A stretch of 64,000 nucleotides of DNA from an uncultured Alphaproteobacteria bacterium (GTDB lineage: Bacteria; Pseudomonadota; Alphaproteobacteria; Acetobacterales; Acetobacteraceae). The notes below the pieces were generated by a model. The model ran no database searches. It worked only from the letters and a program-made list of their open reading frames with translations, and had not been told where the DNA came from. The stretch is taken from the NCBI GenBank assembly GCA_963792675.1, contig CAWBWT010000008.1, forward strand, positions 771 through 64,770, written 5' to 3'. A program made the translations under genes and the position numbers. Every line of letters begins with the position of its first letter. The stretch's first letter is position 1. Below are positions 3,901-64,000 of the stretch, in pieces.

Positions 3901-6900
3901 CGTTGATGCCCGCCACCTGGCCGCCGAGCACGCTGGCGGTCAGTGTCTGGCCGACATCGACCCGAACCGTGGGATCGAGGCCGCCGCTCTCGGTGATCGA
4001 GGGCGTGCTGACGGGGACTGCGTCGTAGTTGGCTTGGGTGATCGCGTTGTGGTCGACGAAGCGGCCATCGGACGACGTCAGGATATGTCCCTGGGAGTCG
4101 ATCGACACGGTGATGTCGCTGAATTGCAGCCGCTCGATGTTGCGGATGCGGTCGGTGCCGTCATCCACCCCGGCAAGCCCCTGGGGGTTGCCGCCGACGA
4201 CGACGCTGACACCGGTATGCTTGATGGTGAGGAACCCTTCGGCATCCACGGCGGGGCCGAAGCCCGCCCCGATGAACGGGCCGAAGAACCCGTCGCCGTA
4301 GTTTGCGAACACGTCATTGAAGACGGCGGTATCGACGTTGGCGGCATTGACCTTGCCCGCGATCAAATTGCCATTTGCATCGACCCCCGTCACCGTGCCG
4401 TTGCCATTCGGATCATACTCGATCTGTCGAATGATCTGTCCGCCGGCCGTGTAGCTGGTCAGCGCCACGTGCAAAAACGCGTCGCCGTCGATGATGTCGT
4501 CGCCGCCGCCGCCCTTGATGACGTCGTTGCCGCCGCCGCCCAGGATGATGTTGCCGCCGTCGAACGACACTGGACCCGGTGCGAAGAAGCCGGACAGGCC
4601 GGTGATCAGGTTGACGTTGTCGAGTTCGTCCTTGGTGGCCAGCGCCCGGGTGTTGTTGTCGCCGGTGATGATGTCGTCGAAGGCGGAGCCGCTGGCGCCT
4701 TCCGTGTGCTGCCAGATGTCGCGGATCGAGTCCTCGCCGCCGTTGGGGGCGATAAACTCCTTGCGGTTCATGTCCTCGCTGACGCCGTGCACCGCGTTCT
4801 CGTACGATCCCCAGTCGAAGCCGAGGCCGCCGATGAACTTGGTGAAGCTGCCGCCGCCGACCATGATGTCGTCGCCGGAGAAGCCCTTCATGATGTCGCC
4901 GCCGGCCACGCCGCCGATCATCACGTCGTTGCCGCTATAGAGGGGCTGGCCGCCGGTGGGGGCACCGGAGTCGCCGAACATGAGCTGGCCTTGGCCGCCC
5001 TTGCTCTCGAGCCAGTCGTCGCCCTCGCCGCCGATCAGCTGGTCCTGGCCTTCGTTGCCGATGATGATGTCGTTGCCGAGGCCGCCCATGATGACGTCGT
5101 CGCCGCGGCCGCCCTCGATGTAGTCGTTGCCGTCGCCACCGAAGATGTTGTCGATGCCGTCGCCGCCATAGATGGTGTCGTTGCCGGCGTCGCCGTGCAG
5201 GGTGTCGTCGCCCTGGCCGCCGATGAGGGTGTCGTTGCCGTCGCCGCCGAACAGGAAGTCGTTGCCGCCACCGCCATTGATGATGTCGTTGCCGCCGTCG
5301 CCATAGACGGTGTCGTCGTCGGCCGCACCGGCAAGCAGGTTGTCGTTGCCCGACGTGCCGCCGAGCACGATGGTGTTGCCGAGGAAGTTGTTCTCGCCCA
5401 CGAACTCGAGCTGATGGGTGCCGTCGGCCAGGGTGTTGATGGTGACGAGCGGCTGGCCGCTCGGGCTGTGCAGCCACGTCTTGCCGGTCGGGTCGATGAT
5501 CTTCCCGCTAGCGTCGAAGTAGTCGCTCGCCTCGATCGTGTATTCCGGCGTGAGAAACATGTTGCCGGGCAGGTGCAGCATATGGTTCGGGTCGTTGCTG
5601 GGATCGGTGTTCGCCCGGATCAACTGCGCGAGCGAGCTGTCCTGCAGCAACTCCTCGTAGTCCATGCCCTCGATGCGCGGCAGGTAATACAGCCGGTCGC
5701 CGTCCTGCAGCGCCTCGAGCTGGGTGCGGAAGATGTATTCGAACGTGGAGCCGAGCTGGCCGCCGAACAGGCTGATCTTCTCGGCCAGGCCGCCGATCCA
5801 GGCGTCGACGGTGTCGAGGCCGGTGACCGAACCGGTGCTCCACGCCGCCGGGTTGCCGGACGCGTCATGGATGGCGCGGGCGTCTTGCGTGTTGTTGGCG
5901 TAAGTGCCCTGGCTGTTGAGGAAGTTGTAGGCATCGAGGTCGAACGTCGCGCTGCCGAGCGTGCCGTTGGTGACGAGCGTCGTCGCAGCGTTGCGCTTGC
6001 CGGCGAGGGTGGTTGCGGCGGTGATCGTGGAATGCGTGCCGTAGGCAGCGATGAAGTTGATCAGCAATTCCGGGTGCTTGATCTGGCTGCCGAACTGGGC
6101 CCAGCTCGCGTAGGCCTTGAGTTGCGCTTCGCCGGTCTGCGAGTAGAGCTGGTTGCGCAGCAGGTTGAGCGGAGCGACGCCGGTGTCACGGCCGCGGGCG
6201 ATGTTGAGTGCCGGGAGGTCGAGCGGCAGGCCGAGCAAGTTATTGCGCAGCGAGCCGGTGACGAACTCGTCGATCGAGTTGCTGACCTGGTTGACGGTGC
6301 CGAGCACGAGGTCGGCCGTCATGTTGGGGTCGCTGGCGAACAGCGTCGGGTTGGTGAAGGCGGTGATCAGGCCCTCTTCGGTCATGACCGGCTGGCCGTT
6401 GGCGCCGATCACCGGCCGGCCGTCCGTGCCGAGCTGGTAGACGTTGACGTTCTCGTCCAGCATCGAATGGCCGAAGCGGTAGACGACGTTGGCGAACTCC
6501 GACGTGATGGCCGGGTTGATGTGGACGTTGACGCCGGCCGCCACGTGGATCGAGGGCGCCACGTAGCGGGCGAACTCGTCGAACACGATGTGCTGGTATT
6601 CGGTCTCGGTGCCGAACTTGGCCGCCTGGAACAGGCGCTCGCCGTTCCACTCGTTCGCGGCGATGATGTGGATCGGGTTGCCGTTGGCGTCGACGTCGGG
6701 CTTGCCGTTAGTCAGGGTCTGCTTGGTCAGATCGACGCCGGGCAGCACCCAGTTGCCGGCAAAGCCGGTGTCGCCCTTGTTGAGCTCGGCCTGGATGGTG
6801 GCCTTGTTCATCGCCAACAGCCGGTCGTGCTCGGAGTGGAAGATGTCCTGCACGGCGGTCAAGCCGATGTTCTCGTTGGCGCGGCCGTCACCGGCAGCGT

Positions 6901-8209
6901 AGTGCGCGTCGAGCAGCTTGCCGTCGTAGAAGCCGGCGGGGGGGAGGGTGCCGGCGGACACGGTGTCGCTGCGCGTCAGCGGAACGCCGAAGTCGTCGGT
7001 GGGCGAGGCGGAGTGCGCCATGTCGTTGATGAAGGCATGGCCGGTGCGCGCCGCCGTGTATCCGGCAGCGCCGGCCACAAACATGGGGATCGGGTGGGCA
7101 AGGTTGCCCTCGACCAAGCTGGTCGTGCCGTCTGGGTGGGTCACGACGAGCTGCGGCATCCCGTTCGGGCCGGCGATGAAGTTGCCGTAGTCGTCGGTCG
7201 CGAGCAGCGGCACGTTGCCGACGTCGGCGTCGGTCAGCAGGATGCCGAGCTTTGTCGCCGCCTGGAACTTGACGTCGGCCCAGGTCGCCATGCCGTCGGT
7301 GCCATTGGCTTTGGCTTGGCCCAGCAGGGCGCCGCTCGAATGCAGCTTGCCGTCGGCGCCGGTCATGTAGTCGCGCAGGAACACCTGGTGCGACGGATCG
7401 GATGCGTAGGTCTGGCTCTGGTCGACGAACGGCGAGGTCTGGTTGGTGTAGGCGCGGATGTCGTCCGCGGTTCCGAGCTTGCCGTCCGGGCCGGGCTGGT
7501 TGGTGGCGCGTGTCAGCACCATGAAGTTGGAATGTCCGCCCACCACATACAAAGGGTCGTCCGGCGTCAGAGGGATGTAGACCGTGCCGTTGCCGCCCTT
7601 GTCGATCATATCGAGGCCGTGGTCGAAGAACTGGCCGAAGAAGGTGAACCAGCTGTTCGACGGCGCCGACAGGCCGTTATCGGGAGTGACGTTGTTGATG
7701 AACAAGCTTTGCGCGAGGCCCGGGATGGCCTGGCTGCTGGCCGAGGCGCTGGTCGGCGTGGCCTGATTGCCGCCGACGATGTCGTCCGCCGTGCCGAAGA
7801 TTTTGTCGACGCCAGCCGTGGTCGTGTTCTGGTAGCCGGCGCCCAGAAAGCTTGCCTGCTGAAGTTGCGCAGCCACCGCCGCGGGGTTGTTCGCGGTCTG
7901 GTCGGAGATCAGGTTGCTGATCATGCGCGGCTGCGCGTCGACCACGAACCCGCTGGTCTGAGCATAGGTCGTGTTCGGCTGGCCGGGGCCGAACGACTGC
8001 GCCGTCTGGAACACCGGATCGGTCACCGTCGGGAACACCTCATCGGTCGAGCCGAAAGCGGTCTGGCCTGGGACTAGGTTGTTGCCGGTGCCGGACACGG
8101 TGCGCAACCCAAACGACAGTAGCGGGTTCACCGGCGGCTGCCCGGCCTCCGCCATCTTGATCTGGGTCAGGATGTAGTCGAGGTCGAGGCGGGTGAGCTT
8201 GACGGCCAT
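928..8209 (-). pseudogene. Giant secreted animal-type haem peroxidase fused to RTX Ca-binding, cadherin/Ig-like and modular repeat domains (MopA-like). One frame disruption near 1655-1665, possibly a sequencing indel.
   Basis: ORFs 1511..8209 (2232 aa) and 928..1677 (249 aa) are one gene. The 85-aa module ...TYVINNVGDAVVE breaks off and resumes as SAGAGTDTEQTALASLTL... in the other frame. Peroxidase signatures: WFTFFGQFFDHGLD (7610-7645) and YRFGHSMLDENV. A GGxGxDxhx nonapeptide run lies at about 5000-5440. A cadherin-like module (VLANDSDPDIGD...FTYTPTKNFFGTDTFTYVASD) and Ig-like modules follow. The C-terminus has DVFFLAKGDANGDLITDF...LSGY, a T1SS-type domain. Confidence 0.85.
1130..2370 (-). 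repeat. About five tandem coding modules of roughly 255 bp (85 aa) in the C-terminal part of the peroxidase/RTX gene
   Basis: The block recurs as GNNLANVITGGAGNDTLDGGAN..DTLIGG.GDDTYIVRN.GDVVTEAA.GGTDTVQT.L.SYTLG.N.ENL...G. I counted 85 residues between equivalent positions. Boundaries are approximate. Confidence 0.7.
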
Positions 8210-8759
8210 GGTCCGCGTTCCTTCACGATCGGTGCATCAAGCCAAGACCACAAGCAGACCTTGGCGAGCAGTTGAGAAAATTGGCAGTAATAGCGATCAC
8301 AAGACTGTCGACCAGAAACACATCACCGAACTCAATAGACCGTCCGGTTACGGCTCGAGGCTTAATACAGACTATGCGACTGGCAGCTTTTAGCGACGTT
8401 CCTGGATTTATTCCGACACGAGGCCGGCTCTGTCAGGAAAGATGACGAGAATTCAGGTGATATTCAACAATGATCCCTAAGCGGACCGCGCTAGTCACCC
8501 CAATTAGACCTTTTGACTAGTAACGTCTTTGCTCAGGGCATCGAGCACCAAGTATCGGCAGGCAGCATTACGCAGCCGCCTCATCTGGCGGCGGCGTGAA
8601 ACAACTGCCATGAGTGGAGAGCGCGTCCGGTCCGGAACGGCGCGATGTCGTCGAACTCGCCTCACCCGGCGCGCGACGCGCACGAGGTCTCCCGGGCACG
8701 CAAATGCGCGCCCGATCCGGGCCGCCGGTCGAGCGCCGGCGCGCCCGGCTGCCCGAGCG

Positions 8760-9476
8760 CTACAGCTCCACTGCCGCCGGCAGCGGCATGCTCGAAAGCC
8801 GGCACAGCAGCCGGGTCAGCGCGATCTGGCCGGAACAGTTGGTCTTCAAGCAGATCCGCTGCAGATGCACCCGCGCCGTGTTGAAGGCGATGCCCATGAC
8901 GGACGCGATCTCCTCCAGGCTCAGGCCGCGCGCGAACAGCTCCGCCAGTTCGGCCTCGCGCACCGACAAGCCGAGTATGGCGGAGAACGCCGAGCGGGCC
9001 GGACCGGTGTTGTCGGCGAAATCGGTCAGCGACAGCAGCACCTCGGCCCCCTCGCCCCGGCCTTCCACCTCGACCACGCACAGCGCATAGCGGGTGGCGC
9101 CGCTGCGGTCGGGCAGGCCGATCGCCTCGCCTACCGGGGCGCCGGCCGACAAGGCGGCGGTGGCCCGCCCGAGCAGCACCTCGAACGCGCGCTGGCTTTC
9201 GCCCCGCTCGATCGCGAGCCGGCCATGGCGGATGCCGAGGACGCCGTTGCCCGCCAGCATCGCGCGAGCCTGCGCGTTCAGGAACCGCACCACCCGCTGC
9301 CCGTCGATCACCAGCAGGCCCGAGCGGGACAGCTTGCTGACGGTTTCCAGGGCGAACACTCGGCCCGAAAGGGAGCCGTTCGATTCGGGCCCGGTGGCCT
9401 GCGGAGGCAGCCCGGCGACGAGCGCTGGTAGCCCATTGCGCGGCAACAGCTCGGTCTTCGCGTCAAACACCGACAT
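8760..9476 (-). CDS. LuxR/FixJ-family helix-turn-helix transcriptional regulator with a PAS-like N-terminal region
   Basis: The C-terminal HTH reads LSVREAELAELFARGLSLEEIASVMGIAFNTARVHLQRICLKTNCSGQIALTRLL. I chose the internal ATG at 9476 (MSVFDAKTELL...). The Arg-rich extension to 9542 looks non-coding. Confidence 0.8.
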   Translation of the reverse strand: MSVFDAKTELLPRNGLPALVAGLPPQATGPESNGSLSGRVFALETVSKLSRSGLLVIDGQRVVRFLNAQARAMLAGNGVLGIRHGRLAIERGESQRAFEVLLGRATAALSAGAPVGEAIGLPDRSGATRYALCVVEVEGRGEGAEVLLSLTDFADNTGPARSAFSAILGLSVREAELAELFARGLSLEEIASVMGIAFNTARVHLQRICLKTNCSGQIALTRLLCRLSSMPLPAAVEL

Positions 9477-9790
9477 TCCCGCTGCTCTCCCGACAGAACT
9501 CCGCCACCGCCGCCCGGCACGAACAAGCCGGCCGGACTTCACAGACGTTATTTGATCGTCATGGTGTCGTTACATAGTGGCAAGATATAGGCCCGAGTCC
9601 GCCGGCGATGCAATATGTTTCTGAATCGAAAATAACGCCTCAGGTGAGCCACAGGCGGGCACGCCCGCAACTTCCGGATCGGCGACCGGCTCGTGGAGCC
9701 CACGCGGAAAAGCTCTTCCCAAACGATGCCGCAACCCGATTAGATGCCGCGACGCCGGCAGCAATAGCCGGGTACTCCAGGGAGGCGTGG

Positions 9791-10849
9791 ATGAGGATCA
9801 CTCGACGGGCGATGGCGGCGGGCGCGGCCATGCTGCCATGGGCGACGGGCGCGCGTGCCCAACCAGCCGGGCCGGTGGACGCGAGCAAGGTCTCGCGCGA
9901 CATCGGCCAGAAAGCCGCCGGCAAGAAGTGGCAGATCGCCACCGTCGTGAAAGTGGACGGCATCGCCTGGTTCGACCGCATGCGCACCGGCGTCGAGCAG
10001 TTCGCCCACGACACCGGTCACGATGCCTGGATGGTCGGGCCCAGCCAGGCCGACGCCGCCGCCCAGGTGCAGCTCGTCGAGAACCTGATCGGCCAGGGCG
10101 TGGACGCGATCTGCATCGTGCCGTTCTCGGTCGAGGCGGTCGAGCCCGTGCTGAAGAAGGCGCGCGACCGCGGCATCGTCGTGGTCGCGCACGAGGCCAG
10201 CAACCTCGTCAACGCCGACACCATCATCGAGGCGTTCGACAACCGTGCCTACGGGGCCAAGCTGATGGAAGAGCTCGGCCGGCTGACCGGCGGCCAAGGC
10301 AAGTACGTCGCCACCGTCGGCAGCCTGACCAGCCAGTCGCACAACGAATGGATCGACGGCGCCGTTGCCTACCAGAAGGAGCACTTCCCGAACATGCAGG
10401 AGGCGGTGCGCCGGGTCGAAAGCTACGACGACGCCGAGGTCGCCTACAACAAGCTGAAAGAGGTGCTGACCGCGCATCCGGACCTGCGCGGGATCGTCGG
10501 TGCGCCCATGCCGGCCAGCGCCGGAGCCGGGCGGCTGATCGCCGAGCGCGGCTTGAAGGGCCGGGTGGAGTTCGCCGGCACCGGCCTGGTCTCGGTGGCC
10601 GGGCAATACCTGCGCGACGGCGACATCCAGTACATCCAGTTCTGGGACCCGGCCGTCGCCGGCTACGCCATGTCGGTGCTGGCGGCAATGCAGTTGCGCG
10701 GCCAGAAGGCGCAGATCAAGCCCGGCCTCGACCTTGGCCTCGAAGGCTATCACAGCCTGCTGGCGCCCGACCGGGCGCGTCCCGGCCTGCTATACGGCGC
10801 CGGCTGGGTCGGCGTCACCAAGGACAACATGGCCCAATACAACTTCTAG
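9791..10849 (+). CDS. Sugar ABC transporter periplasmic substrate-binding protein (type I PBP, LsrB/RhaS-like)
   Basis: Start ATG at 9791 is preceded by GGAGG (9781-9785). Signal peptide MRITRRAMAAGAAMLPWATGARAQ. PBP-I motifs include IATVVKVDGIAWFDRM and GVDAICIVPFSVEAVEPVLKKARDRGIVVVAHE. Confidence 0.85.
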   Translation: MRITRRAMAAGAAMLPWATGARAQPAGPVDASKVSRDIGQKAAGKKWQIATVVKVDGIAWFDRMRTGVEQFAHDTGHDAWMVGPSQADAAAQVQLVENLIGQGVDAICIVPFSVEAVEPVLKKARDRGIVVVAHEASNLVNADTIIEAFDNRAYGAKLMEELGRLTGGQGKYVATVGSLTSQSHNEWIDGAVAYQKEHFPNMQEAVRRVESYDDAEVAYNKLKEVLTAHPDLRGIVGAPMPASAGAGRLIAERGLKGRVEFAGTGLVSVAGQYLRDGDIQYIQFWDPAVAGYAMSVLAAMQLRGQKAQIKPGLDLGLEGYHSLLAPDRARPGLLYGAGWVGVTKDNMAQYNF

Positions 10850-10857
10850 CGCCCGAG

Positions 10858-12393
10858 ATGCCAGCGCAACCGGGAGAAAGGGCGGCTCCCGGGGCGACGC
10901 CGGTGGTCGCCCTGCGCGACGTGTCCAAGCGGTTCGGCGGCGTGCGCGCACTCGACCGCGTCTCGTTCACGGTGGCACAAGGCGAGGTCCGCTGCCTCGC
11001 CGGCGAGAACGGGTCCGGCAAAAGCACCGTGATCAAGGTGCTGAGCGGCGTCCACCGCGCCGACAGCGGCGAGGTCGTGCTGGACGGCGCCGCCCGGTCG
11101 GCCGTCACCCCGCGCGAAGCGATCGCCGCCGGCGTGCAGGTGATCTACCAGGACTTCTCCCTGTTCCCCAACCTCACGGTCGCCGAGAACCTGGCCATGA
11201 GCCAGGATCTGCGCGCCCGGCGCTGGCGCGTGGACCGCCGTCGCGCGCGGCGGGCCGCCGCCGAAGCGTCCGACCGGCTCGGCGTGGCGCTCGACCCCGA
11301 TGCCGAGGTCGGCACGCTGCCGGTCGCTGGGCGCCAGTTGGTCGCCATCGCCCGCGCCCTGCTGGCCGACGTGCGCCTGCTGGTGATGGACGAGCCGACC
11401 ACGGCACTCACCCACCAGGAGGTGACCCGGCTGTTCCACCTCGTCGCCGGCATGAAGGCGCGCGGCATCGCCGTGCTGTTCGTCAGCCACAAGATGCGCG
11501 AGATGCTGGACGTCGCCGACAGCCTGACGGTGCTGCGCAATGGCCGCGTGGTGGCCGAGGGCGCCATGGCCGGGTTCGGCGAGGCCAGCATCACCCGCGC
11601 CATGACCGGCCACGACCCCGGCCCGGTCCGCCACGACTGGCCCGCCGCCGCGCCCGAAACGCGGCCACGGCTGGAGTTGCGTCGCTTGACGGTGCCGGGC
11701 GAAGTCGCCGACATGTCGTTCCGCTTGGCGCCCGGCGAGATCGTCGGCGTGGCCGGGCTGCTGGGCTCGGGCCGCACCGAGCTGGCGCTCGCCTTGTTCG
11801 GCATGCGCCCGGGCTACACCGGCGACATCCTGCTCGACGGCCGCCCGGTGCGGCTGCGCAGCGTGGCCGACGCCGTGGCGGCCGGCATCGCCTACGTCCC
11901 CGAGGACCGGCTGACCGAGGGCCTGTTCCCGTCGCGCAGCATCGACGAGAACCTGCTGGCCGCAGCACTGGACCGGTTCACCGGCGCCACCGGCTGGGTG
12001 GACCGCCCGGCCACCCAACAGGCCGCCGCCGGCGCCATCCGCGACATGGCGATCGCCACCCCCAGCGGCGACCGCGCCGTGTCCGAGCTGTCGGGCGGCA
12101 ACCAGCAGCGGGTGGTGATCGGGCGCTGGCTGCTGACCCGGGCGCGCGTGCTGCTGCTGAACGGCCCGACGGTGGGCGTCGACGTCGGCAGCAAGGCGGC
12201 GATCCACCGGGTGATCCGCGACCTGGCCCGCGACCGCGGCCTTGCGGTGCTGATGGTGTCCGATGACGGGCCGGAGCTGGCGGAGAACTGCCGCCGCGTG
12301 CTGCTGGTCGGTGGCGGGCGCCTGATCGGCGAGCTGTCCGGCGACGCCTTGAGCGACGCCGCCATCACCGACCGCTTGCGGGCGATGACATGA
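10858..12393 (+). CDS. Sugar ABC transporter ATP-binding protein (duplicated ATPase, RbsA/MglA type)
   Basis: Walker A GENGSGKST, signature LSGGNQQRV, and two nucleotide-binding domains. The real start is the ATG at 10858. ORF-track entry 9787..12393 is an out-of-frame read-through across the SBP gene. Confidence 0.9.
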   Translation: MPAQPGERAAPGATPVVALRDVSKRFGGVRALDRVSFTVAQGEVRCLAGENGSGKSTVIKVLSGVHRADSGEVVLDGAARSAVTPREAIAAGVQVIYQDFSLFPNLTVAENLAMSQDLRARRWRVDRRRARRAAAEASDRLGVALDPDAEVGTLPVAGRQLVAIARALLADVRLLVMDEPTTALTHQEVTRLFHLVAGMKARGIAVLFVSHKMREMLDVADSLTVLRNGRVVAEGAMAGFGEASITRAMTGHDPGPVRHDWPAAAPETRPRLELRRLTVPGEVADMSFRLAPGEIVGVAGLLGSGRTELALALFGMRPGYTGDILLDGRPVRLRSVADAVAAGIAYVPEDRLTEGLFPSRSIDENLLAAALDRFTGATGWVDRPATQQAAAGAIRDMAIATPSGDRAVSELSGGNQQRVVIGRWLLTRARVLLLNGPTVGVDVGSKAAIHRVIRDLARDRGLAVLMVSDDGPELAENCRRVLLVGGGRLIGELSGDALSDAAITDRLRAMT

Positions 12394-55745: not shown

Positions 55746-56105
55746 TCACTTCGGACGCATCGGACGCAGCTCCTCCGGGTCGAGCGTGCCGCGGCGCTTA
55801 TGCAGCTGCATCACCAGCGCCAGCAGCAGGGCGGTGACGGTCGCGCCCACCACCACGTCCGTCAGCACCAGCGCATGCGTGACCGGGTCCACCGCCGGGG
55901 TGCCCGGCGGCTTGGTGTAGAAGATCGGCGCAATCCCGCCGGTCCGGAACCCCACCGACAGCAGCAGCACGTAGGTCGCCGCCTGCACCACCGACAGGCA
56001 GCCGATCAGGTGCACCGCATTGCGGCTGGTAACGACGCCATACAACCCGACCCCAAGCAGCCAGGCGGCAGCCAACCAGGGCAACATGTCCACCAAACCC
56101 GTCAT
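55746..56105 (-). CDS. mnhC: Mrp/Mnh antiporter subunit C (NuoK-like)
   Basis: 119 aa with 3 TM segments: ...[29 protein letters not shown].... ATGA overlap with mnhB. Confidence 0.8.
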
Positions 56106-56863
56106 GACGCGTCCTCCGCCGGCACCACCCGCGTCTCCTCCAGGAATTCAATGAACACCACAGCGAACCCGCCGAACACGGCCAAGGTGACGCCCGCATT
56201 CTCCACCAGCATGAGGCCGCCGGAGAACAGGTCGCCCGGCGTGCCGAGCGGCAGCATGTTCTGCCCGAACGGCAGGCCGAGCAGGACCCCGGCAAACCCG
56301 CACAACACGTAAAGCGTGGCGCCCAGCCCCTCGCAGGCGTCGGCGGCGGCCGATTGCGCCAGGCGGCGCCAGCCCGCATAGCCGTCGCCCAGGAACACCA
56401 GCAGTAAGCCGGACGCCAGCATGACGCCGCCCTGGAACCCGCCGCCGGGCGTGGTCATGGCATGCAGCGCCACATACAGCCCGAACAGCAGCAGCACGCC
56501 CGCGCCCATCCGGCCGGCCACCACGATCGCGTCCGTGCGAGGCAAGACCGGACGATGCCCGGTGCGACCCGGCCGGGCGCTCCGCTGCTCGCCGCGCTGC
56601 CCGCGCAGCAGCACGGTCACCCCGGTCACCGCGCACAGCAGCATGAATTCCTCGCCCAGCGTGTCGAAGCCGCGGTAATCGAAATTGACCGCGCTCGTCA
56701 TGTTGGTGACGTGGCGCTCGGGCGGTGCCGCGGCATTGATCGCGTCGCCATACGGCAACGGGTGCGCGCCGAAGCCGGGCATGTGCGCCGCCACCCGCAC
56801 GACGCCGGGCAGCACGATCAGGACCGCGGCGGCGAACAGCACCAGCCGGATCCGCGGGCTCAT
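56102..56863 (-). CDS. mnhB: Mrp/Mnh antiporter subunit B
   Basis: Start ATG at 56863 (MSPRIRLVLF...). MnhB motif SAVNFDYRGFDTLGEEFMLLCAVTGV. The ORF-track N-terminal extension is rejected. Confidence 0.8.
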   Translation of the reverse strand: MSPRIRLVLFAAAVLIVLPGVVRVAAHMPGFGAHPLPYGDAINAAAPPERHVTNMTSAVNFDYRGFDTLGEEFMLLCAVTGVTVLLRGQRGEQRSARPGRTGHRPVLPRTDAIVVAGRMGAGVLLLFGLYVALHAMTTPGGGFQGGVMLASGLLLVFLGDGYAGWRRLAQSAAADACEGLGATLYVLCGFAGVLLGLPFGQNMLPLGTPGDLFSGGLMLVENAGVTLAVFGGFAVVFIEFLEETRVVPAEDAS

Positions 56864-56883
56864 GCCGCGCGGCGTCTCCGCCG

Positions 56884-57144
56884 TCACTCCCGCTCGTCTC
56901 CGCGCGGCCCAGGATCCATCTGGATCGAGGCCAGCACCACCAGGAACAGCAGCGGCAAGGCCGCGGTCCCGACCGCAATCTCGGCGAACGCGACGTCCGG
57001 CGCCTGCAGCGCCATGAACAGCAGGGCCAGCGCCATGCCGTTCGCCGACATGGCCAGCACCTGCCGGCGCGGCGTGCGCGACAGCGCGACCCCGGTGCCG
57101 GTGACGGCCACCAGGACGAACAGCAGGGCCAGCAGCGCCGTCAC
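56884..57144 (-). CDS. DUF4040 / MbhD-like small membrane protein (equivalent to the MrpA C-terminal segment)
   Basis: The GTG start at 57144 forms a GTGA overlap with the mnhG stop. 86 aa with 3 TM segments and the motif ...ALQAPDVAFAEIAVGTA.... Confidence 0.65.
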   Translation of the reverse strand: MTALLALLFVLVAVTGTGVALSRTPRRQVLAMSANGMALALLFMALQAPDVAFAEIAVGTAALPLLFLVVLASIQMDPGPRGDERE

Positions 57145-57437
57145 CGCGGCCCGAGCGACCGGAAGCGCTCCCGATACAGCAACGCCCGCCCGGCCGCGTG
57201 CGACAGCGCCGCCCCGCCCACCACCCCGGCCAGAACGGTCGCCAGCACCTTCCAGGACCGGACCGACGGCCCGTCCGCCGCAAACGCCGCCGCCGCCAGC
57301 ACCGCCCCGGCCGCCACGTTGACGAAGGCCGCGCAGTGCAGCCGGTCGAGCGGCGTCCGCAGCCGCACGAACCCCAGGCAGCCGAGCCACGTCACCGCGA
57401 CCAGCAAGCCCAGCAGCCCGTCCACCACCAGCGTCAC
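57141..57437 (-). CDS. mnhG: Mrp/Mnh antiporter subunit G
   Basis: The GTG start at 57437 forms a GTGA overlap with the mnhF stop. Motif WLGCLGFVRLRTPLDRLHCAAFVNVAG. Confidence 0.7.
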   Translation of the reverse strand: MTLVVDGLLGLLVAVTWLGCLGFVRLRTPLDRLHCAAFVNVAAGAVLAAAAFAADGPSVRSWKVLATVLAGVVGGAALSHAAGRALLYRERFRSLGPR

Positions 57438-57685
57438 AGCCAACGTTCCAAGAACAGCGCCAGCGCCAGCGTGCCCGGCACCGTCAGCAGCGGCACCGCA
57501 AGCGCGAGGTCGATGAACGAGCTCTGGTCGAACGCGAAGGTCATCAGCGCGAGCACGATCGTGAACACGCTGCTCGCCAGTTGCACCGCCGCCAGCCGGT
57601 CGCCCGAGCTGCCGCGGCACGCCGCCACCGCCGGGATCGCAAACGCCGGCACCAACGCCACCGCCGCCAACTCCCAACCCGTCAC
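57434..57685 (-). CDS. mnhF: Mrp/Mnh antiporter subunit F
   Basis: The GTG start at 57685 forms a GTGA overlap with the mnhE stop. 83 aa: ...GDRLAAVQLASSVFTIVLALMTFAFDQSSFIDLALAVPLL.... Confidence 0.7.
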   Translation of the reverse strand: MTGWELAAVALVPAFAIPAVAACRGSSGDRLAAVQLASSVFTIVLALMTFAFDQSSFIDLALAVPLLTVPGTLALALFLERWL

Positions 57686-58167
57686 GCCGGCCAGTCCGCG
57701 CCGGACACCGGCGAGGCCGGCGCCAACCGATGCAGCAGAAGCCCGTGCTCCGCCTCCGGCAAGGCCGACGGCCGCACATCCAGCACGAAGCCGTTCGGCG
57801 CCAGCGACGTCGCGAGCGTCACCAGCGCCCGCCGCCCGGCGTCGCTCGACCGGACGCCGCCCGGCCGGAACGCCTGCCAACTCTCCGCGCCGCTCATACC
57901 GCCCGCCAGCGCACCCACCAGCGCCGCGCCGACCCGCCACGTATCCGTCACCAGGCTCGCCAGCACGCTCGCCGCCCACCGCCCAGGCGGCACCGGCAGC
58001 ATCACGCCACGCGCCCCCCGCAACCGCTCGATTGTCATGAACCCGGCCGATACACCCGCCGCCGCCACCCCAGCGACGCTCTCCGTCCAACTCAGGCTGC
58101 CGGCCAGCAGCAAGTAGGCGGGCAGCAAGGCCCCGAACGACAGGAGGGCAAACCAGGCGATCGACAT
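57682..58167 (-). CDS. mnhE: Mrp/Mnh antiporter subunit E
   Basis: 161 aa. Two N-terminal TM segments and the C-terminal ...ALVTLATSLAPNGFVLDV...GLLLHRL, a MnhE-type signature. Confidence 0.7.
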   Translation of the reverse strand: MSIAWFALLSFGALLPAYLLLAGSLSWTESVAGVAAAGVSAGFMTIERLRGARGVMLPVPPGRWAASVLASLVTDTWRVGAALVGALAGGMSGAESWQAFRPGGVRSSDAGRRALVTLATSLAPNGFVLDVRPSALPEAEHGLLLHRLAPASPVSGADWPA

Positions 58168-58191
58168 CCGCTCCGCTCCCAGCGGCGGGAT

Positions 58192-58268
58192 TGGCGGACC
58201 CGAGACGATTCGAACGTCCGGCCTTTGCCTTCGGAGGGCAACGCTCTATCCAGCTGAGCTACGGGTCC
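58192..58268 (-). tRNA. tRNA-Arg (anticodon CCG), 77 nt including the encoded CCA
   Basis: Folded by hand from GGACCCGTAGCTCAGCTGGATAGAGCGTTGCCCTCCGAAGGCAAAGGCCGGACGTTCGAATCGTCTCGGGTCCGCCA. Acceptor stem 7 bp, D-stem GCTC/GAGC, anticodon stem TTGCC/GGCAA with loop CTCCGAA, T-stem GGACG/CGTCT, T-loop TTCGAAT. Confidence 0.95.
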
Positions 58269-58318
58269 AACGCCGCCCTCTTAGCGCGTCGGGCCCGCCC
58301 TGCCAAGCCGCCCCACCG

Positions 58319-59341
58319 CTACCGGTGATCGGCCTGCCACGCCGCTGCCGCGAGGTCCGCCCCCGACGGCAGCCAATCCGCCGGCTGCTCGATCCAGCCG
58401 ATGATGTCCCCGGTCGGCGCCGCCCGCCCCTTGTCGCGCAGCAGCAGATGGTAGCCCCCCGGATACAACGCCCGCCGCACTCCCGCCGGCATCCGCGCCC
58501 AGGCCCGCCCCATCGCCTCCGCCGGCACCAGCGTATCCCGCGCCCCATACAACGCCAGCACCCGCCCATGCAGGAACGGCGCCGCCGCCTGCGCCTCGTC
58601 CATCAGATCCGTCAGCCCGCGCAGCGCATCGAACCGCGTCCGCCGGATCGTCAGCGGATCCCGCGCCAGCCGAATCAGCGCCTCCCGGTTGTCGCTCGCC
58701 ACCACCCGCAGCGGCACCTCCGCCCCCGTGACGCTCAGCCCCGGCGCCAACCCCGACACCAGCCACAACCCGCCGCTCAACGCCGGCCCCATCTGCTGCC
58801 GCCCCCACACCGCCGGCGACAGCAGGATCCACCCATCCACCGCCGGCGCATCCGGCCGCGCCGCCACCGTCATCAGCACCGCCCCGCCCATGCTCTCGCC
58901 CATCGCATACAGCGGCACCCCGGGATACCGCGCCCGCAGGCTCCGCAGCATCGCCACCACGTCGTCCCCCAGCACCTCGGCGCCCGCCCAGGTCCCCCGC
59001 ATCGGCGCCGCCCCGAACCCCCGCTGATCCGGCGCGAACACCGCGATCCCAGCCGCCGTGAACTGCGGCGCCGGGATCTCCCACGCGTCCCGACTGTCGT
59101 TGAACCCGTGCAGCGCCAGCACCACCGCCCTCGGCGCTTCCGGAGGCAACCAAGTCCGCACCGGCAGCCGAGCCCCGTCCGGCATCGTGAACGTCTCGTC
59201 CGCCTGCAGCAGCGCCCCCGGCAACGGCGGCAGCGCCACGCCATACCGCGGCAGCCCGGTGCACGCCGTCAGCGCCAGCAGAAGGAGAAGCGGCCGCAGC
59301 CGGGCCAGCAAGGTTGAACTCACGGCGGCCACGCGTATCAT
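58319..59341 (-). CDS. Alpha/beta hydrolase lipoprotein (lysophospholipase / monoacylglycerol-lipase-like)
   Basis: Start ATG at 59341. Lipobox LLLLALTAC. HGFNDS oxyanion region and the nucleophile elbow GESMGG. The ORF-track extension to 59575 is rejected. Confidence 0.8.
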   Translation of the reverse strand: MIRVAAVSSTLLARLRPLLLLLALTACTGLPRYGVALPPLPGALLQADETFTMPDGARLPVRTWLPPEAPRAVVLALHGFNDSRDAWEIPAPQFTAAGIAVFAPDQRGFGAAPMRGTWAGAEVLGDDVVAMLRSLRARYPGVPLYAMGESMGGAVLMTVAARPDAPAVDGWILLSPAVWGRQQMGPALSGGLWLVSGLAPGLSVTGAEVPLRVVASDNREALIRLARDPLTIRRTRFDALRGLTDLMDEAQAAAPFLHGRVLALYGARDTLVPAEAMGRAWARMPAGVRRALYPGGYHLLLRDKGRAAPTGDIIGWIEQPADWLPSGADLAAAAWQADHR

Positions 59342-59371
59342 CACCGCACCCTCAAATCCAACGAGAACCGC

Positions 59372-59578
59372 ATGCCCTTCGGCGCCGACACGCCCCGCCC
59401 GCAACTCGGCACGACCGAGACAATCCACGTCGACAGCCGCACCGTCGCCTGCGACGGCGGTGACGGCCCCCTCGGCCACCCCCGCGTCTGGCTCCACATC
59501 GACCACCAGCAGACCTTCTGCCCCTACTGCTCCCGCATCTTCGTCCTCAACGAGGGCGCCCACGACGATGGACACTAA
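59372..59578 (+). CDS. Small zinc-finger (zf-CHCC-like) protein
   Basis: 68 aa with C..(D)GG...HPRVWL...CPYC. This class of small protein commonly precedes polA in alphaproteobacteria (recall). It overlaps the polA start by 11 nt. Confidence 0.65.
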   Translation: MPFGADTPRPQLGTTETIHVDSRTVACDGGDGPLGHPRVWLHIDHQQTFCPYCSRIFVLNEGAHDDGH

Positions 59579-62394
59579 CGCGGGTCAGGCGCCGCCGGCC
59601 CCAGCGGGTGCAAGGACAGAGCCCTCGGAACACCTGATCCTCATCGACGGATCCGGCTTCATCTTCCGCGCCTTCCACGCCCTCCCGCCCATGACCCGGC
59701 CCGACGGCACCCCCGTCAACGCCGTCTTCGGCTTCACCAACATGCTCGCCCGCCTCCTCCAGAATCACGAAGGCACCCACCTAGCCGTCGTGTTCGACGC
59801 CGGCCGAACCACCTTCCGCAACGACCTCTACGACCGCTACAAAGCCCAGCGCCCCGAGCCCCCGCCCGAGCTCGTCCCCCAATTCGCCCTCGTCCGCGAC
59901 TGCACCGCCGCCTTCGGCGTCCCCGCGGTCGAGCTCCCCACCTGGGAAGCCGACGACCTCATCGCCTCCTACGCCTGCGCCGCCACCGCCGCCGGCTGGC
60001 GCACCACCATCGTCTCCTCCGACAAGGACCTGATGCAGCTCATCGGCGACCGCGTCGTCATGCAGGACCCGATCAAGCAAAAACCCATCGGCCCCGCCGA
60101 GGTCCTGGAGAAATTCGGCGTCCCCCCCAGCCTCGTCGTCGAAGTCCAGGCCCTCATGGGCGACAGCGTCGACAACATCCCCGGCGTCCCCGGCATCGGC
60201 CCCAAAACCGCCTCCCAGCTCATCCAGGAGCACGGCACCGTCGAAGCCGTCCTCGCCGCCGCCCCCGCCATGAAACCCAGCAAGCGCCGCGACATGCTCA
60301 TCGAGCACGCCGAAGCCGCCCGCATCTCCCGCCGCCTCGTCGAGCTCGCCTGCGACGTCCCCCTCCCCCTCCCGCTGGAAGACCTCCGCGCCAAGGACCC
60401 CGACCGCCAAACCCTCACCGCCTGGCTCCACGCCATGGGCTTCCGCTCCACCGCCATCCGCCTCGGCTACGAAGGCGGCGCCCCCCCACCACCCTCGCCC
60501 GAGCCCGCCGAACTCGAAGCCCCGCCCGAACAGCCCCCCTTCGGCCCCTACGAGCTCGTCACCACCGAAGCACAACTCGCCGCCTGGATCGCCGAAGCCC
60601 GCACCGCCGGCGCCGTCGCCCTCGACGTCGCCCTCGACGGCCCCCGCGCCATGCGCGCCACCCTCGTCGGCCTCTCCCTCGCCACCGCCCCCGGCCGCGC
60701 CTGCTACCTCCCCCTCCGCCACCGCCTGCCCGACGGCGCCAACCAGCTCGGCCTCGACCCCGCCGCCCCCGAGCCCCCGCCCCCCCTGCAGCAGCTCGAC
60801 CCCGACGCCGCCCTCGCCGCCCTCCGCCCCCTCCTGCAAGACCCGGCCATCCTCAAGATCGCCCACGACGCCAAGCACGTCCTCGAAGCGCTCGCCAGAG
60901 TCGGCACCGGGGCCTCCCCGGTCGACTGCGCCATGCTCATCTCCTACGCCCAGGGCACCGGCGCCCACGGCCACGGCCTCGACGAGCTCTCCGTCAAAAA
61001 CCTCGGCCACAAGCCCACCCCGCTCGACGCCATCACCGGCACCGGCCGCGCCCGCCTGCCCATCGCCCTCGTCCCCCCCGACCGCGCCGCCGCCCACGCC
61101 GCCGAGGCCGCCGACGTCGCCCTCCGCCTCTGGCGCCTCCTCCGCCCCCGCCTCCGCCCCGCCCGCTCCCTCGCCATCTACGAGCACCTCGAGCGCCGCC
61201 TCATCCCCGTCCTCCTCGCCATGGAGCAAGCGGGAATAAAACTCGACGAAACCGAGCTCCGCCGCATGTCCGCCGACTTCGCCACCCGCATGGCCGTCAT
61301 GGAAACCGAAATCCACGCCATGGCCGGCCGCCCCTTCAACCTCGGCAGCCCCAAAGCCCTCGGCGAAATCCTGTTCGACGAAATGAAACTCCCCGGCGGC
61401 CGCCGCATGGCCACCGGCGCCTGGGGCACCGACGTCAACGTCCTCACCACCCTCGCCGAGCAAGGCCACGACCTCCCCGCCCGCATCATCGACTGGCGCC
61501 AGCTCAGCAAGCTCCGCTCCACCTACACCGAAGCCCTCGTCGCCGAGATCAACCCCGAAACCGGCCGCGTCCACACCTCCTACGCCCAAGCCATCGCCAG
61601 CACCGGCCGCCTCTCCAGCAACGACCCCAACCTCCAAAACATCCCCATCCGCACCGAGGAAGGTGCCGCCATCCGCAAAGCCTTCGTCGCCGAGCCCGGC
61701 CACGTCCTCGTCTCCGCCGACTACAGCCAGATCGAGCTCCGCCTCCTCGCCCACATGGCCGACATCCCGCCCCTCCGCGAGGCCTTCGAAACCGGCCAGG
61801 ACATCCACACCCGCACCGCGTCCGAAGTCTTCGGCGTCCCCGTGGCCGGCATGGACCCCTCGACCCGCCGCCGCGCCAAGGCCATCAACTTCGGCATCAT
61901 CTACGGCATCTCCGCCTTCGGCCTCGCCCGCCAACTCTCCATCGAGCCCGGCGAAGCCAAGCTCTACATCGACGCCTATTTTGAAAAATACCCCGGCATC
62001 CGCACCTACATGGAGCGCACCAAGGAGGAAGCCCGCATCCACGGCTACGTCCTCACCCCCTTCGGCCGCCGCTGCTGGGTCCCCGGCATCACCGAGAAAA
62101 CCCCCCACCGCCGCGCCTACGCCGAGCGCCAAGCCATCAACGCCCCCCTCCAAGGCGGCGCCGCCGACATCATCAAGCGCGCCATGGTCCGCCTCCCCGC
62201 CGCCCTCGCCGCGGCCGGCCTCCGCGCCCGCCTGCTGCTGCAGGTCCACGACGAGCTGCTGTTCGAAGCACCCGCATGCCGAAGCCGCCGCCACCGCGTC
62301 CCTGGCGCAGGACGTGATGCAGCGCGCGGCGTCGATCCGGGTGCCGCTGGTGGTGGAGACGGGGGTGGGGCTGAACTGGTCGGCGGCGCACTAA
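59568..62394 (+). pseudogene. polA: DNA polymerase I. Frame disruption near 62274-62280, about 120 nt before the stop, possibly a sequencing indel.
   Basis: 5'-nuclease N-terminus HLILIDGSGFIFRAFHALPPMTRPDGTPVNAVFGF. Polymerase motifs RVHTSYAQAIASTGRLSSNDPNLQNIPIR, SADYSQIELRLLAH, RRAKAINFGIIYG and LLLQVHDELLFEAP. After LFEAP the frame is lost. The canonical tail AEAAATASLAQDVMQRAASIRVPLVVETGVGLNWSAAH* is in the frame of ORF 61663..62394. Confidence 0.9.
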
Positions 62395-62397
62395 GCG

Positions 62398-62449
62398 TCA
62401 GGGCGCTGCCCTGAACCCGCTGGGGCCAGCGGCCCCAGACCCGCAAAAC
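62398..62449. repeat. Two consecutive GC hairpins immediately after polA. The second lies inside copy 2 of the 44-nt REP-like repeat (62406-62449).
   Basis: Hairpin 1 is tcagggc-gct-gccctga (62398-62414). Hairpin 2 is ctggggcc-agc-ggccccag (62420-62438). There is no U-tract. 40 of 44 positions match 28722-28765. Confidence 0.7.
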
Positions 62450-62481
62450 TTGCCTCTGATCCACCGATTAGAGGTTTGACA

Positions 62482-63072
62482 ATGATCGTCAATGAGGTTT
62501 TCAAACTACCTGACCTGGAGCATCGTCCAAGGTCAAATTCGCGTCCGAGGAACTTTGACCAAATGTCGGTTTTGCTATACCTAGACGCCGTAAAAGATAG
62601 CACCTATGGAATAGTGTTGCTTGGTGCCATCGGCAGCTTAATCGCCACGATGTTGGCGTTTCTCACCAAATATCTCATAGATCGGAACACACGCCTAAAC
62701 AAAGCAACCCACTGGAATTTTGGTTGGATGAGTAAATTCTGCTCAGATGACGTGGGGCATCATCCTATATACCTAACATTCGTAGCAGCCCATGTTGCAA
62801 AAATCGCTATCCAATGCACCTCCTGTATATTTTTTATCTTACTAGCCCAGAGCACCCTTGTTTACTATCCGTCCGTTTTGTTTTACATAGTTCCGGTTGT
62901 TTGTCTCTCGTTAGCAGTATTGTTTTTCATGCGTGCTGTGTCTGACTATAAGGCCCTCCGTGGCAGTTATCGTCACTGGATAGATGAGCTTGACCGTGAG
63001 GATCGTAAGGCAGTTCGCAGCCTGAAAAAAGCTACTCTCAATAACAGTCCAAATCTCATTGAGAGAGAATAA
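62482..63072 (+). CDS. Hypothetical membrane protein (about 3 TM) encoded in the low-GC island
   Basis: ATG at 62482 with GAGG 7 nt upstream (the track start is TTG 62476). A/T-rich codon usage unlike the rest of the window. TM segments: YGIVLLGAIGSLIATMLAFL, IYLTFVAAHVAKIAIQCTSCIFFILLA and VLFYIVPVVCLSLAVLFFM. I recognise no domain. Confidence 0.6.
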   Translation: MIVNEVFKLPDLEHRPRSNSRPRNFDQMSVLLYLDAVKDSTYGIVLLGAIGSLIATMLAFLTKYLIDRNTRLNKATHWNFGWMSKFCSDDVGHHPIYLTFVAAHVAKIAIQCTSCIFFILLAQSTLVYYPSVLFYIVPVVCLSLAVLFFMRAVSDYKALRGSYRHWIDELDREDRKAVRSLKKATLNNSPNLIERE

Positions 63073-63154
63073 ATGACGGTTCTTAATCGTCATCGCAGGT
63101 TGTAGCCAATCGTGAACGACAAGGAGGGACGGCTTTCTCAAACTCGCACTTAAT

Positions 63155-64000
63155 CTACCCTGCGGTTCTTTGCCTTGCGACCCATTGTGTGTGCTCCCGC
63201 GAAAATGCCAACTCCGTGTCATTGACGAAATCCGAAAACGTCTGCTCATTCTCGATTTCCACGATAGCCTCTCTAGCCAGTCCAATCTCGGTAGCCGTCA
63301 TTGTATAGCTGGATGCGAGCTCTGAATGGCGCTTGATCTGGATCCAACCGATTGCACACGTGGCAAAAACTATTACGGGTTCAAGCGGCACGAACCTCCA
63401 AGAAGGGCGTGCAATTCGGGATAGTGCCAAAATAAAAGCTACAACGTACGAAAGTACGGAAATCGCCAACCATATTTTGAATGCCCTGCGGTTCTGTCTT
63501 GCCTTCACGCTGTACCAGAGTTGTTGATCCCTGATTCGGTAATCAATATAGAAATCAACTCTCGACGATAATGGAAGCGTTCTTATCTGTCTCATTGAGG
63601 GTGTTGCTTGATCTCCTGAAACACGTCCGTGGATGTCTCCTCGCATCAACACCGGATTACTTGCCACTACATCCAGAATGCGCCCGGTAAACACCGTAAC
63701 GGCCTGCTGCTCCGAACCTACAGCATTAAACGGGTGCGCTCGCATGGCAAACCGCCAGGCTAGCGTCTTAATGGACTCTGCGCCCGCGCGTGCTTCGTAC
63801 CACTTTCGTTCTGGCGTTAGAAGAGAACGAGTAATTAGTATCGTCAGAGAAATTACGAATACAAGAGCATACCCACAGTAATAAAGTGGATCATTGGAGA
63901 ACTCTACCGAAAAAACAGATGCTAGCAAAAGACTCGCGTACTCACCACGCAGCAGCAAATGATAACTTCGCTGATAGTTTTTTGATAGCTCGTTTGAGGC
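63155..64000 (-). CDS. Tandem 2TM SLATT/DUF4231-like protein (predicted membrane effector). The N-terminus lies beyond the right window edge.
   Basis: The frame stays open upstream of the track start (63958) to position 64000 (...ASNELSKNYQRSYHLLLRGEYAS...). First 2TM hairpin: SLLLASVFSV...YCGYALVFVISLTILI, followed by ERKWYEARAGAESIKTLAWRFAMRA. Second unit: FYIDYRIRDQQLWYSVKARQNRRAFKIWLAISVLSYVVAFILAL...VIVFATCAIGWIQI, followed by ...FSREHTQWVA. The family call is from recall of SLATT/DUF4231 sequence patterns, not an HMM. Confidence 0.6.
   Translation of the reverse strand, partial: ASNELSKNYQRSYHLLLRGEYASLLLASVFSVEFSNDPLYYCGYALVFVISLTILITRSLLTPERKWYEARAGAESIKTLAWRFAMRAHPFNAVGSEQQAVTVFTGRILDVVASNPVLMRGDIHGRVSGDQATPSMRQIRTLPLSSRVDFYIDYRIRDQQLWYSVKARQNRRAFKIWLAISVLSYVVAFILALSRIARPSWRFVPLEPVIVFATCAIGWIQIKRHSELASSYTMTATEIGLAREAIVEIENEQTFSDFVNDTELAFSREHTQWVARQRTAG

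Follow-up and report, generated by a model that had tools for sequence, protein, structure and literature searches.

A divergent SLATT_3-SLATT_1 protein on a low-GC island of an uncultured alphaproteobacterium is a putative ThsH-type effector of TIR-based phage defence

At the right-hand end of a 64,000-nucleotide stretch of DNA from an uncultured alphaproteobacterium (the whole stretch is called the window here), a minus-strand gene runs off the sequence, and the question raised by this locus is what the gene encodes and with which partner its product works. The original prediction was that of a membrane effector of the SLATT/DUF4231 type whose gene continues past position 64000. ORF scanning and translation gave a frame that is open from the window edge at 64000 to a stop codon at 63155-63157 on the minus strand; none of the 281 visible codons interrupts it, and no residue that is invariant in the family is missing. 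A database protein of 294 amino acids (P0001) was 100% identical over all 281 visible residues. The visible part of the gene corresponds to 281 of 294 residues, i.e., codons 14-294 plus the stop. The gene does continue past 64000, with the 13 N-terminal residues MIPEDIQISALHD lying off-window according to P0001; the start codon is at about 64037-64039, and the window stops 39 nt short of it. The features of this end of the window are collected in Table 1.

Table 1. Features at the right-hand end of the window, in window coordinates
Feature	Position	Strand	Basis
Visible part of the low-GC island right after polA	62420..64000	.	Composition profile, gene GC values
Convergent neighbour, ~168 aa, three hydrophobic segments	62566..63072	+	Homologue search; longest ORF from 62476/62482
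ThsH-like SLATT effector gene (putative)	63155..64000	-	ORF, 100% match to P0001, full-length homology to the SLATT protein beside a near-validated type VII ThsB
SLATT_3 domain (PF18184/NF033610), overlapped by DUF4231	63560..63997	-	Pfam, NCBIfam, hydropathy, AF2
SLATT_1 domain (PF18181/NF033634)	63182..63550	-	Pfam, NCBIfam, hydropathy, AF2
C-terminal signature ELAFSREHTQWVARQ	63170..63214	-	Alignments

The assignment to the SLATT/DUF4231 group was upheld by an HMM search of the Pfam models, in which SLATT_3, SLATT_1, and DUF4231 all scored above their cutoffs. SLATT_3 matched residues 2-147 of the visible fragment (E = 1e-29; 104 bits; cutoff, 26.3) and SLATT_1 matched residues 151-273 (E = 9.4e-33; 113 bits; cutoff, 26.3), while DUF4231 (PF14015) overlapped the first SLATT unit (E = 2.8e-12; 47 bits; cutoff, 24.7). 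The corresponding NCBIfam models gave E = 7e-36 and 124 bits for SLATT_3 (cutoff, 45) and E = 1e-30 and 106 bits for SLATT_1 (cutoff, 41). SLATT_5 was absent from the Pfam matches of the window protein, its best models being SLATT_3 and SLATT_1. As measures of sequence likeness, the scores of the SLATT domains are far beyond chance. It was also observed that residues 164-288 of P0001 (about 63176-63550 of the window, the SLATT_1 half) weakly matched phrog_7395, a phage protein family of unknown function (E = 1e-6); SLATT_1-like proteins are thus present in phage genomes as well.

Each of the two units had been predicted to consist of a two-transmembrane (2TM) hairpin and a helical region, and both hydropathy and structure modeling fit this description. 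On the Kyte-Doolittle scale, strong hydrophobic segments were found at full-length residues 50-77, 185-213, and 215-235, together with a weaker one at about residues 31-48. By hydropathy, the hairpin of the SLATT_3 unit comprises TM1 (about 63896-63949) and TM2 (63809-63892), and that of the SLATT_1 unit comprises TM3 (63401-63487) and TM4 (63335-63397). An AlphaFold2 (AF2) model computed from a 30-sequence alignment was all-helical (mean pLDDT, 92.4; pTM, 0.86). Its helices H10-43 and H51-74 match the first hairpin and H157-210 and H219-236 match the second, so that the hydrophobic segments coincide with long helices of the model and indicate one 2TM hairpin per SLATT unit. As modeled, each SLATT unit is a helical hairpin followed by a polar helical region. 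A Foldseek search of the model against the PDB returned nothing better than E = 0.1, with TM scores of at most 0.25, and the top matches were ABC transporters and G protein-coupled receptors, i.e., generic helical bundles. Likewise, phmmer found no match for the protein among PDB sequences, and no SLATT structure was found in the PDB by either the fold or the sequence searches.

The motifs quoted in the original prediction, W-Y/R-A/E/K/W-R and Q/W-Y/K, proved to be real and invariant across the family. The first lies in the SLATT_3 unit as W80-Y81-x-x-R84-A85-x-x-E88-S89-x-K91-T92...W95-R96, and the second lies in the SLATT_1 unit as Q172-x-x-W175-Y176-x-x-K179. Conservation in the family peaks in the C-terminal signature (Table 1), in which E276, F279-T284, W286, A288, and R289 are invariant; judged by this conservation, it is a candidate piece of a cytoplasmic ligand or oligomerisation surface. 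In all, 43 columns were invariant across 30 sequences of 40-53% identity, which marks a strongly conserved family.

The family itself is large. A word-indexed search recovered at least 480 database homologues of about 285-310 aa, all with the same three Pfam domains; their records are named "DUF4231 domain-containing protein" or "hypothetical protein", and one homologue record is named "conflict system pore-forming effector with SLATT domain". In species-representative genomes, at least 574 loci encode such proteins, and among the matches listed there the relatives were at most 48% identical to the window protein and came mostly from Alphaproteobacteria, with some from Gamma- and Betaproteobacteria and one from Calditrichia. 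In a collection of 5.8 billion proteins, the nearest relative besides P0001 was only 53% identical. By these identities, the window protein is placed in a sparsely sampled clade of alphaproteobacterial type. A search of PADLOC-DB v2.0.0, which dates from 2023 and is older than the description of type VII Thoeris (see below), assigned the window protein to 0 families at E <= 1.

To ask which genes accompany the family, every ORF lying up to 4 kb from the SLATT gene was collected at 81 loci in species-representative genomes, and these ORFs were clustered. The sole neighbour family that recurred beyond local synteny was a small protein whose gene is co-oriented with the SLATT gene and directly adjoins it, found at 68 of the 81 loci, with a second such family at 16 loci; the remaining clusters reflected Mesorhizobium synteny. 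Pfam searches with representatives of the recurrent neighbours identified them as ThsB_TIR (E = 4e-16 and 1e-18) and TIR_2/ThsB_TIR. A ThsB_TIR/TIR_2 ORF was thus adjacent and co-oriented at about 68 of the 81 loci, upstream of the SLATT gene at about 50 and only downstream at about 18, a downstream-only count that includes two copies cut by contig ends. At about seven to nine loci, there was no TIR within 4 kb or there were other neighbours, among them genes for DUF4062-TPR and nSTAND1-WD40 proteins and housekeeping genes.

The closest relatives gave the same picture. In all four that were looked up (P0003, P0005, P0007, and P0011; 51-53% identity), a gene for a 136-aa ThsB_TIR protein was found that ends 0-3 nt before the SLATT start or overlaps it. 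These TIR-SLATT pairs are set amid genes for integrases, restriction-modification, toxin-antitoxin, TraD, and plasmid Rep/ParA proteins; by analogy, such a mobile or defence-island setting is consistent with a role in phage resistance. TIR proteins were also tied, indirectly, to the contigs of P0004, P0008, and P0009, which brings the number to at least 7 of the 10 closest relatives. Among the partner types that had been listed beforehand, and judged on these relatives, only the TIR type held up, in the form of ThsB-type TIR proteins; CD-NTase/SMODS, SLOG, HEPN, and reverse transcriptase did not. Indeed, neither a CD-NTase nor a reverse transcriptase stood beside the SLATT gene on the Pfam-annotated contigs of close relatives, and at the 81 loci CD-NTase/SMODS was not a recurrent neighbour, TIR being the only one.

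Several loci of the survey depart from the simple pair. At the Mesorhizobium loci L026, L028, L030-L037, L040, L049, and L054-L056, co-oriented TIR genes lie on both sides (~9396-11377), with a 195-aa TIR_2-like protein encoded upstream and a 168-aa ThsB_TIR protein downstream of the ThsH-like gene, a layout reminiscent of Shaseng and of multi-ThsB Thoeris operons. TPR-S proteins of 441-444 aa are encoded beside the ThsH-like gene in L050 (11365-12699, where MAP3K_TRAF_bd is found as well) and in L057 (4185-5510, where a TIR lies about 4 kb from the ThsH-like gene); these two loci resemble the rare operons, described in a recent preprint, that join type VII (ThsH) and type VIII (ThsI) effectors (bioRxiv 10.64898/2025.12.03.692087). 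L084, from Pseudoalteromonas viridis, holds a plain TPR-S and TIR pair. Upstream of the ThsH-like gene, L078 encodes a 703-aa protein with DUF4062 and TPR (7809-9920) and L046 encodes a 1169-aa nSTAND1 NTPase-WD40 protein (6016-9525), which may be alternative sensors for ThsH-like effectors. Apparent SLATT-TIR fusions in L003 and L016 were ruled out, as there is a stop codon between the ORFs in each case; the fusion was an artefact of ORF extension.

The pairing of TIR and SLATT genes is that of a defence system described recently. In December 2025, Yirmiya et al. (Sorek) scanned TIR operons in defence islands and validated seven new types of Thoeris; operons of TIR plus SLATT were named type VII, in which the effector is ThsH and the TIR protein is ThsB (bioRxiv 10.64898/2025.12.03.692087). 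For three type VII TIRs, canonical cADPR was made only after phage infection, and it was cADPR in the medium, not 2'cADPR or 3'cADPR, that halted the growth of type VII cells. AlphaFold3 predicted ThsH to form a homo-oligomer that spans the membrane, the pockets between its protomers being positively charged, and types VII and VIII, counted jointly, were reported from about 2% of genomes. For the type VII system validated from Pseudohongiella nitratireducens, the same preprint tabulates the sequence of the TIR domain. A TIR protein 90% identical to this validated ThsB domain (P0121) is encoded, with an 8-nt overlap, just ahead of a gene for a 294-aa DUF4231/SLATT_3/SLATT_1 protein. The window protein was 37% identical over 234 residues (E = 3e-49), and 33% identical end to end, to this SLATT protein, which is a close proxy of validated ThsH and not the validated ThsH sequence itself.

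An alignment of seven sequences that included the proxy had 60 invariant columns, among them WY-x-x-RA-x-AES-x-KT-x-x-WR, R160/Y164/R168/Q172/Y176/K179, and, at the C-terminus, FSREHTQW-x-AR. The window protein therefore shares with the proxy both the DUF4231/SLATT_3 plus SLATT_1 architecture, at a length of 294 aa, and the signature motifs along a full-length alignment, although at only 33-37% identity. The likeness extends to the partner genes, in that relatives of the window protein also come in a two-gene operon of TIR and SLATT, with TIRs that belong by sequence to the type of the validated cADPR producers: the 136-aa TIRs of the closest relatives were 38% identical (E = 3e-30) to validated cADPR-producing type VII/VIII ThsB domains and shared with them the motifs F-x-S-H-x-W and G-M-Y...W-x-Q-x-E-I. 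Whereas the TIR partner is a feature of the known system, at the window locus, where only the SLATT gene was read, it is predicted to lie off-window. Judged by its sequence, the window gene is a divergent ThsH-like effector, and membership of its product in the ThsH family can be held with high confidence. The original view that a double-SLATT architecture had not been characterised did not survive these comparisons, since SLATT_3 plus SLATT_1 is a common family and TIR plus SLATT has been validated both as type VII Thoeris and as Shaseng. Neither of the two outcomes named beforehand as refuting the SLATT effector prediction, a lack of SLATT/DUF4231 matches or neighbours of a purely housekeeping or transport kind, was encountered.

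Shaseng consists of one or two TIR proteins (SasA/SasB) and a SLATT transmembrane protein; immunity is lost when the TIR is mutated, and derepression proves toxic (bioRxiv 10.1101/2024.12.27.630466). It resembles the system proposed here in combining one or more TIRs with a SLATT effector in phage defence of the abortive-infection type, and it can have a two-TIR layout like that of the Mesorhizobium relatives. Unlike the window locus, at which no CRISPR-Cas is visible, Shaseng lies inside CRISPR-Cas loci and is under their control, and the likeness drawn here is one of description. The 2TM/SLATT effectors of CBASS, and SLATT as first defined (Burroughs et al. 2015, as cited in later papers), belong to the same superfamily and share their proposed principle with the window protein: a nucleotide second messenger would lead to oligomerisation of the 2TM module and to membrane damage. 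In contrast to these, the relatives of the window protein pair with TIR and not with CD-NTase/SMODS, and the window protein has two tandem SLATT units. In DRT10/UG17, a reverse transcriptase and a noncoding RNA are combined with a single-domain SLATT_5 protein of about 185 aa (bioRxiv 10.64898/2026.04.29.721553; Mestre et al. 2022, PMC9226505). There, too, a SLATT membrane protein is the toxic output of a defence system, but the window protein is of the SLATT_3 plus SLATT_1 type, not SLATT_5, and its relatives have no reverse transcriptase neighbour.

The setting of the window gene agreed with the low-GC island beside polA that had been noted for this high-GC host. The GC content is 0.45-0.50 from about 62420-62450 to 64000 and 0.70 in the rest of the window, and the composition shifts about 30-50 bp past the polA stop. 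The SLATT gene has a GC content of 49% and its left neighbour one of 45%, compared to 70% for the remaining window, and the island runs on past the right window edge. On the reading favoured here, the island was acquired horizontally and recently. A blastn search of the island against the plasmids of PLSDB gave no match, and an exact 43-mer from 63950-63992 was absent from JGI metagenomes. Within 61500-64000, scans for promoters and terminators found nothing above shuffled expectation, and a repeat scan found neither repeats above that expectation nor an att-like repeat. A tRNA-Arg(CCG) gene (58192-58268, minus strand) lies ~4 kb left of the island, away from its boundary, and is flanked by an Mrp/Mnh-like antiporter operon and an alpha/beta hydrolase (Hydrolase_4) gene.

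The adjacent polA gene (about 59574-62394, plus strand) is apparently frameshifted near its 3' end (62268-62290). In one frame (...QVHDELLFEAPA), its DNA_pol_A match reaches no further than position 343 of the 381-position profile, and the canonical C-terminus (AEAAATASLAQDVMQRAASIRVPLVVETGVGLNWSAAH, followed by the stop) carries on in the next frame. The frame change is consistent with one extra base at ~62277, arising either from a sequencing or assembly error or from a real lesion, and it lies in native high-GC DNA, ~120 bp before the island junction.

The ORF that converges on the SLATT gene belongs to a very rare family, with 10 homologues among 1.84 billion representatives (best, 51% identity; 167 aa). 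Since these homologues align from query residue 29-35, the true start of the ORF is probably the ATG at 62566. It matched no Pfam, PADLOC, or PHROG family, and its nearest homologue had no SLATT or TIR gene alongside; the three short contigs that carry this homologue held only unannotated small genes. The convergent 168-aa ORF is probably cargo of the island and not a conserved partner of the SLATT gene. No TIR was found within 56000-64000 of the window, i.e., none downstream of the SLATT gene. Any TIR partner must therefore lie on the upstream side, beyond 64039, in line with the original prediction of an off-window partner to the right.

We consider it likely that the window gene codes for an effector of the ThsH type and that it belongs, together with an adjacent TIR gene, to an abortive-infection system based on TIR and akin to type VII Thoeris, carried on the low-GC island. 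At the window locus, the predicted partner is a gene for a 136-aa ThsB_TIR protein on the minus strand at ~64040-64450, ending a few bases from the SLATT start. By homology to the validated systems, phage infection would cause the TIR protein to turn NAD+ into canonical cADPR, and cADPR alone would suffice to arrest the growth of cells that bear the system. It may bind positively charged pockets between the cytoplasmic helical parts of ThsH protomers, probably with the involvement of invariant Arg, Lys, and His residues. Binding would then lead to a membrane-spanning ThsH oligomer by which the inner membrane is breached or depolarised, and the infected cell would die or arrest ahead of phage release. 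The steps of oligomerisation and membrane breach are predictions from the preprint, based on AlphaFold3.

Other readings differ from this one mainly in what they place beyond the window edge. The SLATT gene might be an orphan or decaying effector that was acquired without its TIR or whose TIR was lost, and that is now inert or answers a signal made elsewhere in the genome. Some relatives do lack a TIR within 4 kb (about 7-9 of 81, e.g., L024, L059, L061, L062, which lies beside an adenosine deaminase gene, and L079), L081 has a frameshifted C-terminus, and the apparent frameshift in the neighbouring polA hints at a possible flaw in the assembly or in the region itself. In a profile search built from the four closest TIR partners, a TIR from the source contig was absent from the best 120 of 2,028 matches, a result that carries no weight either way. 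However, the frame is intact across the 281 visible codons with all family-invariant residues kept, and an upstream TIR was found in 7 of 7 closest relatives for which there was information, upstream being the one side that lies outside the window. We regard an orphan or decaying gene as unlikely, though not far-fetched. Because about 10% of relatives have no nearby TIR, there is also room for an island that carries the effector only, fired in trans by cADPR or another TIR product that is made elsewhere in the genome or by an invading element, or for a SLATT protein re-wired to an undescribed off-window sensor; we hold this reading, in its two forms together, to be decidedly doubtful.

SLATT domains are interchangeable effectors in CBASS, RADAR, AbiA/UG23, and DRT10, and single relatives have a DUF4062-TPR (L078) or nSTAND1-WD40 (L046) protein encoded upstream, so that a known sensor of another kind might lie off-window, be it a CD-NTase/SMODS, a SLOG protein, a UG17/DRT10-type reverse transcriptase, a DUF4062-TPR protein, or a STAND NTPase. 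This is very improbable, given that ORF clustering at the 81 loci returned TIR as the only recurrent neighbour, that SLATT proteins linked to reverse transcriptases are SLATT_5 while the window protein is SLATT_3 plus SLATT_1, and that CD-NTase and reverse transcriptase are absent beside close relatives. It is hardly credible that the SLATT protein and the convergent 168-aa membrane protein (62566-63072) form a two-component module, holin-like or of the toxin/immunity kind, that works with no nucleotide signal. Both are membrane proteins encoded 82 bp apart on the same low-GC island, and the neighbour had weak, sub-threshold holin-like matches (E = 0.012), yet the opposing orientation means that the two genes are not co-transcribed. 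Furthermore, the family of the neighbour counts 10 representatives against thousands of SLATT_3 plus SLATT_1 proteins, no SLATT or TIR gene lies beside its closest homologue, and none of its homologues recurs at the loci of the 81 relatives.

Taken as a ThsH-type effector with an adjacent TIR, the window gene is an ordinary further member of a known defence system. The sensing of cADPR and the membrane action of SLATT proteins are better pursued in the systems that have already been validated, and the window copy raises no new question in this respect. It does widen the family to a divergent clade that is at most 53% identical to other known proteins, and it is an example of the family on an island of low GC that a genome of ~70% GC took up recently. 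If the reading of an effector-only or re-wired SLATT gene were true, SLATT_3 plus SLATT_1 proteins would be free-standing, shareable "receivers" of nucleotide alarm signals. For the family at large, records named "DUF4231" or "hypothetical", and proteins that were missed by PADLOC in 2023, can now be interpreted as effectors of the ThsH type in TIR/cADPR signalling.
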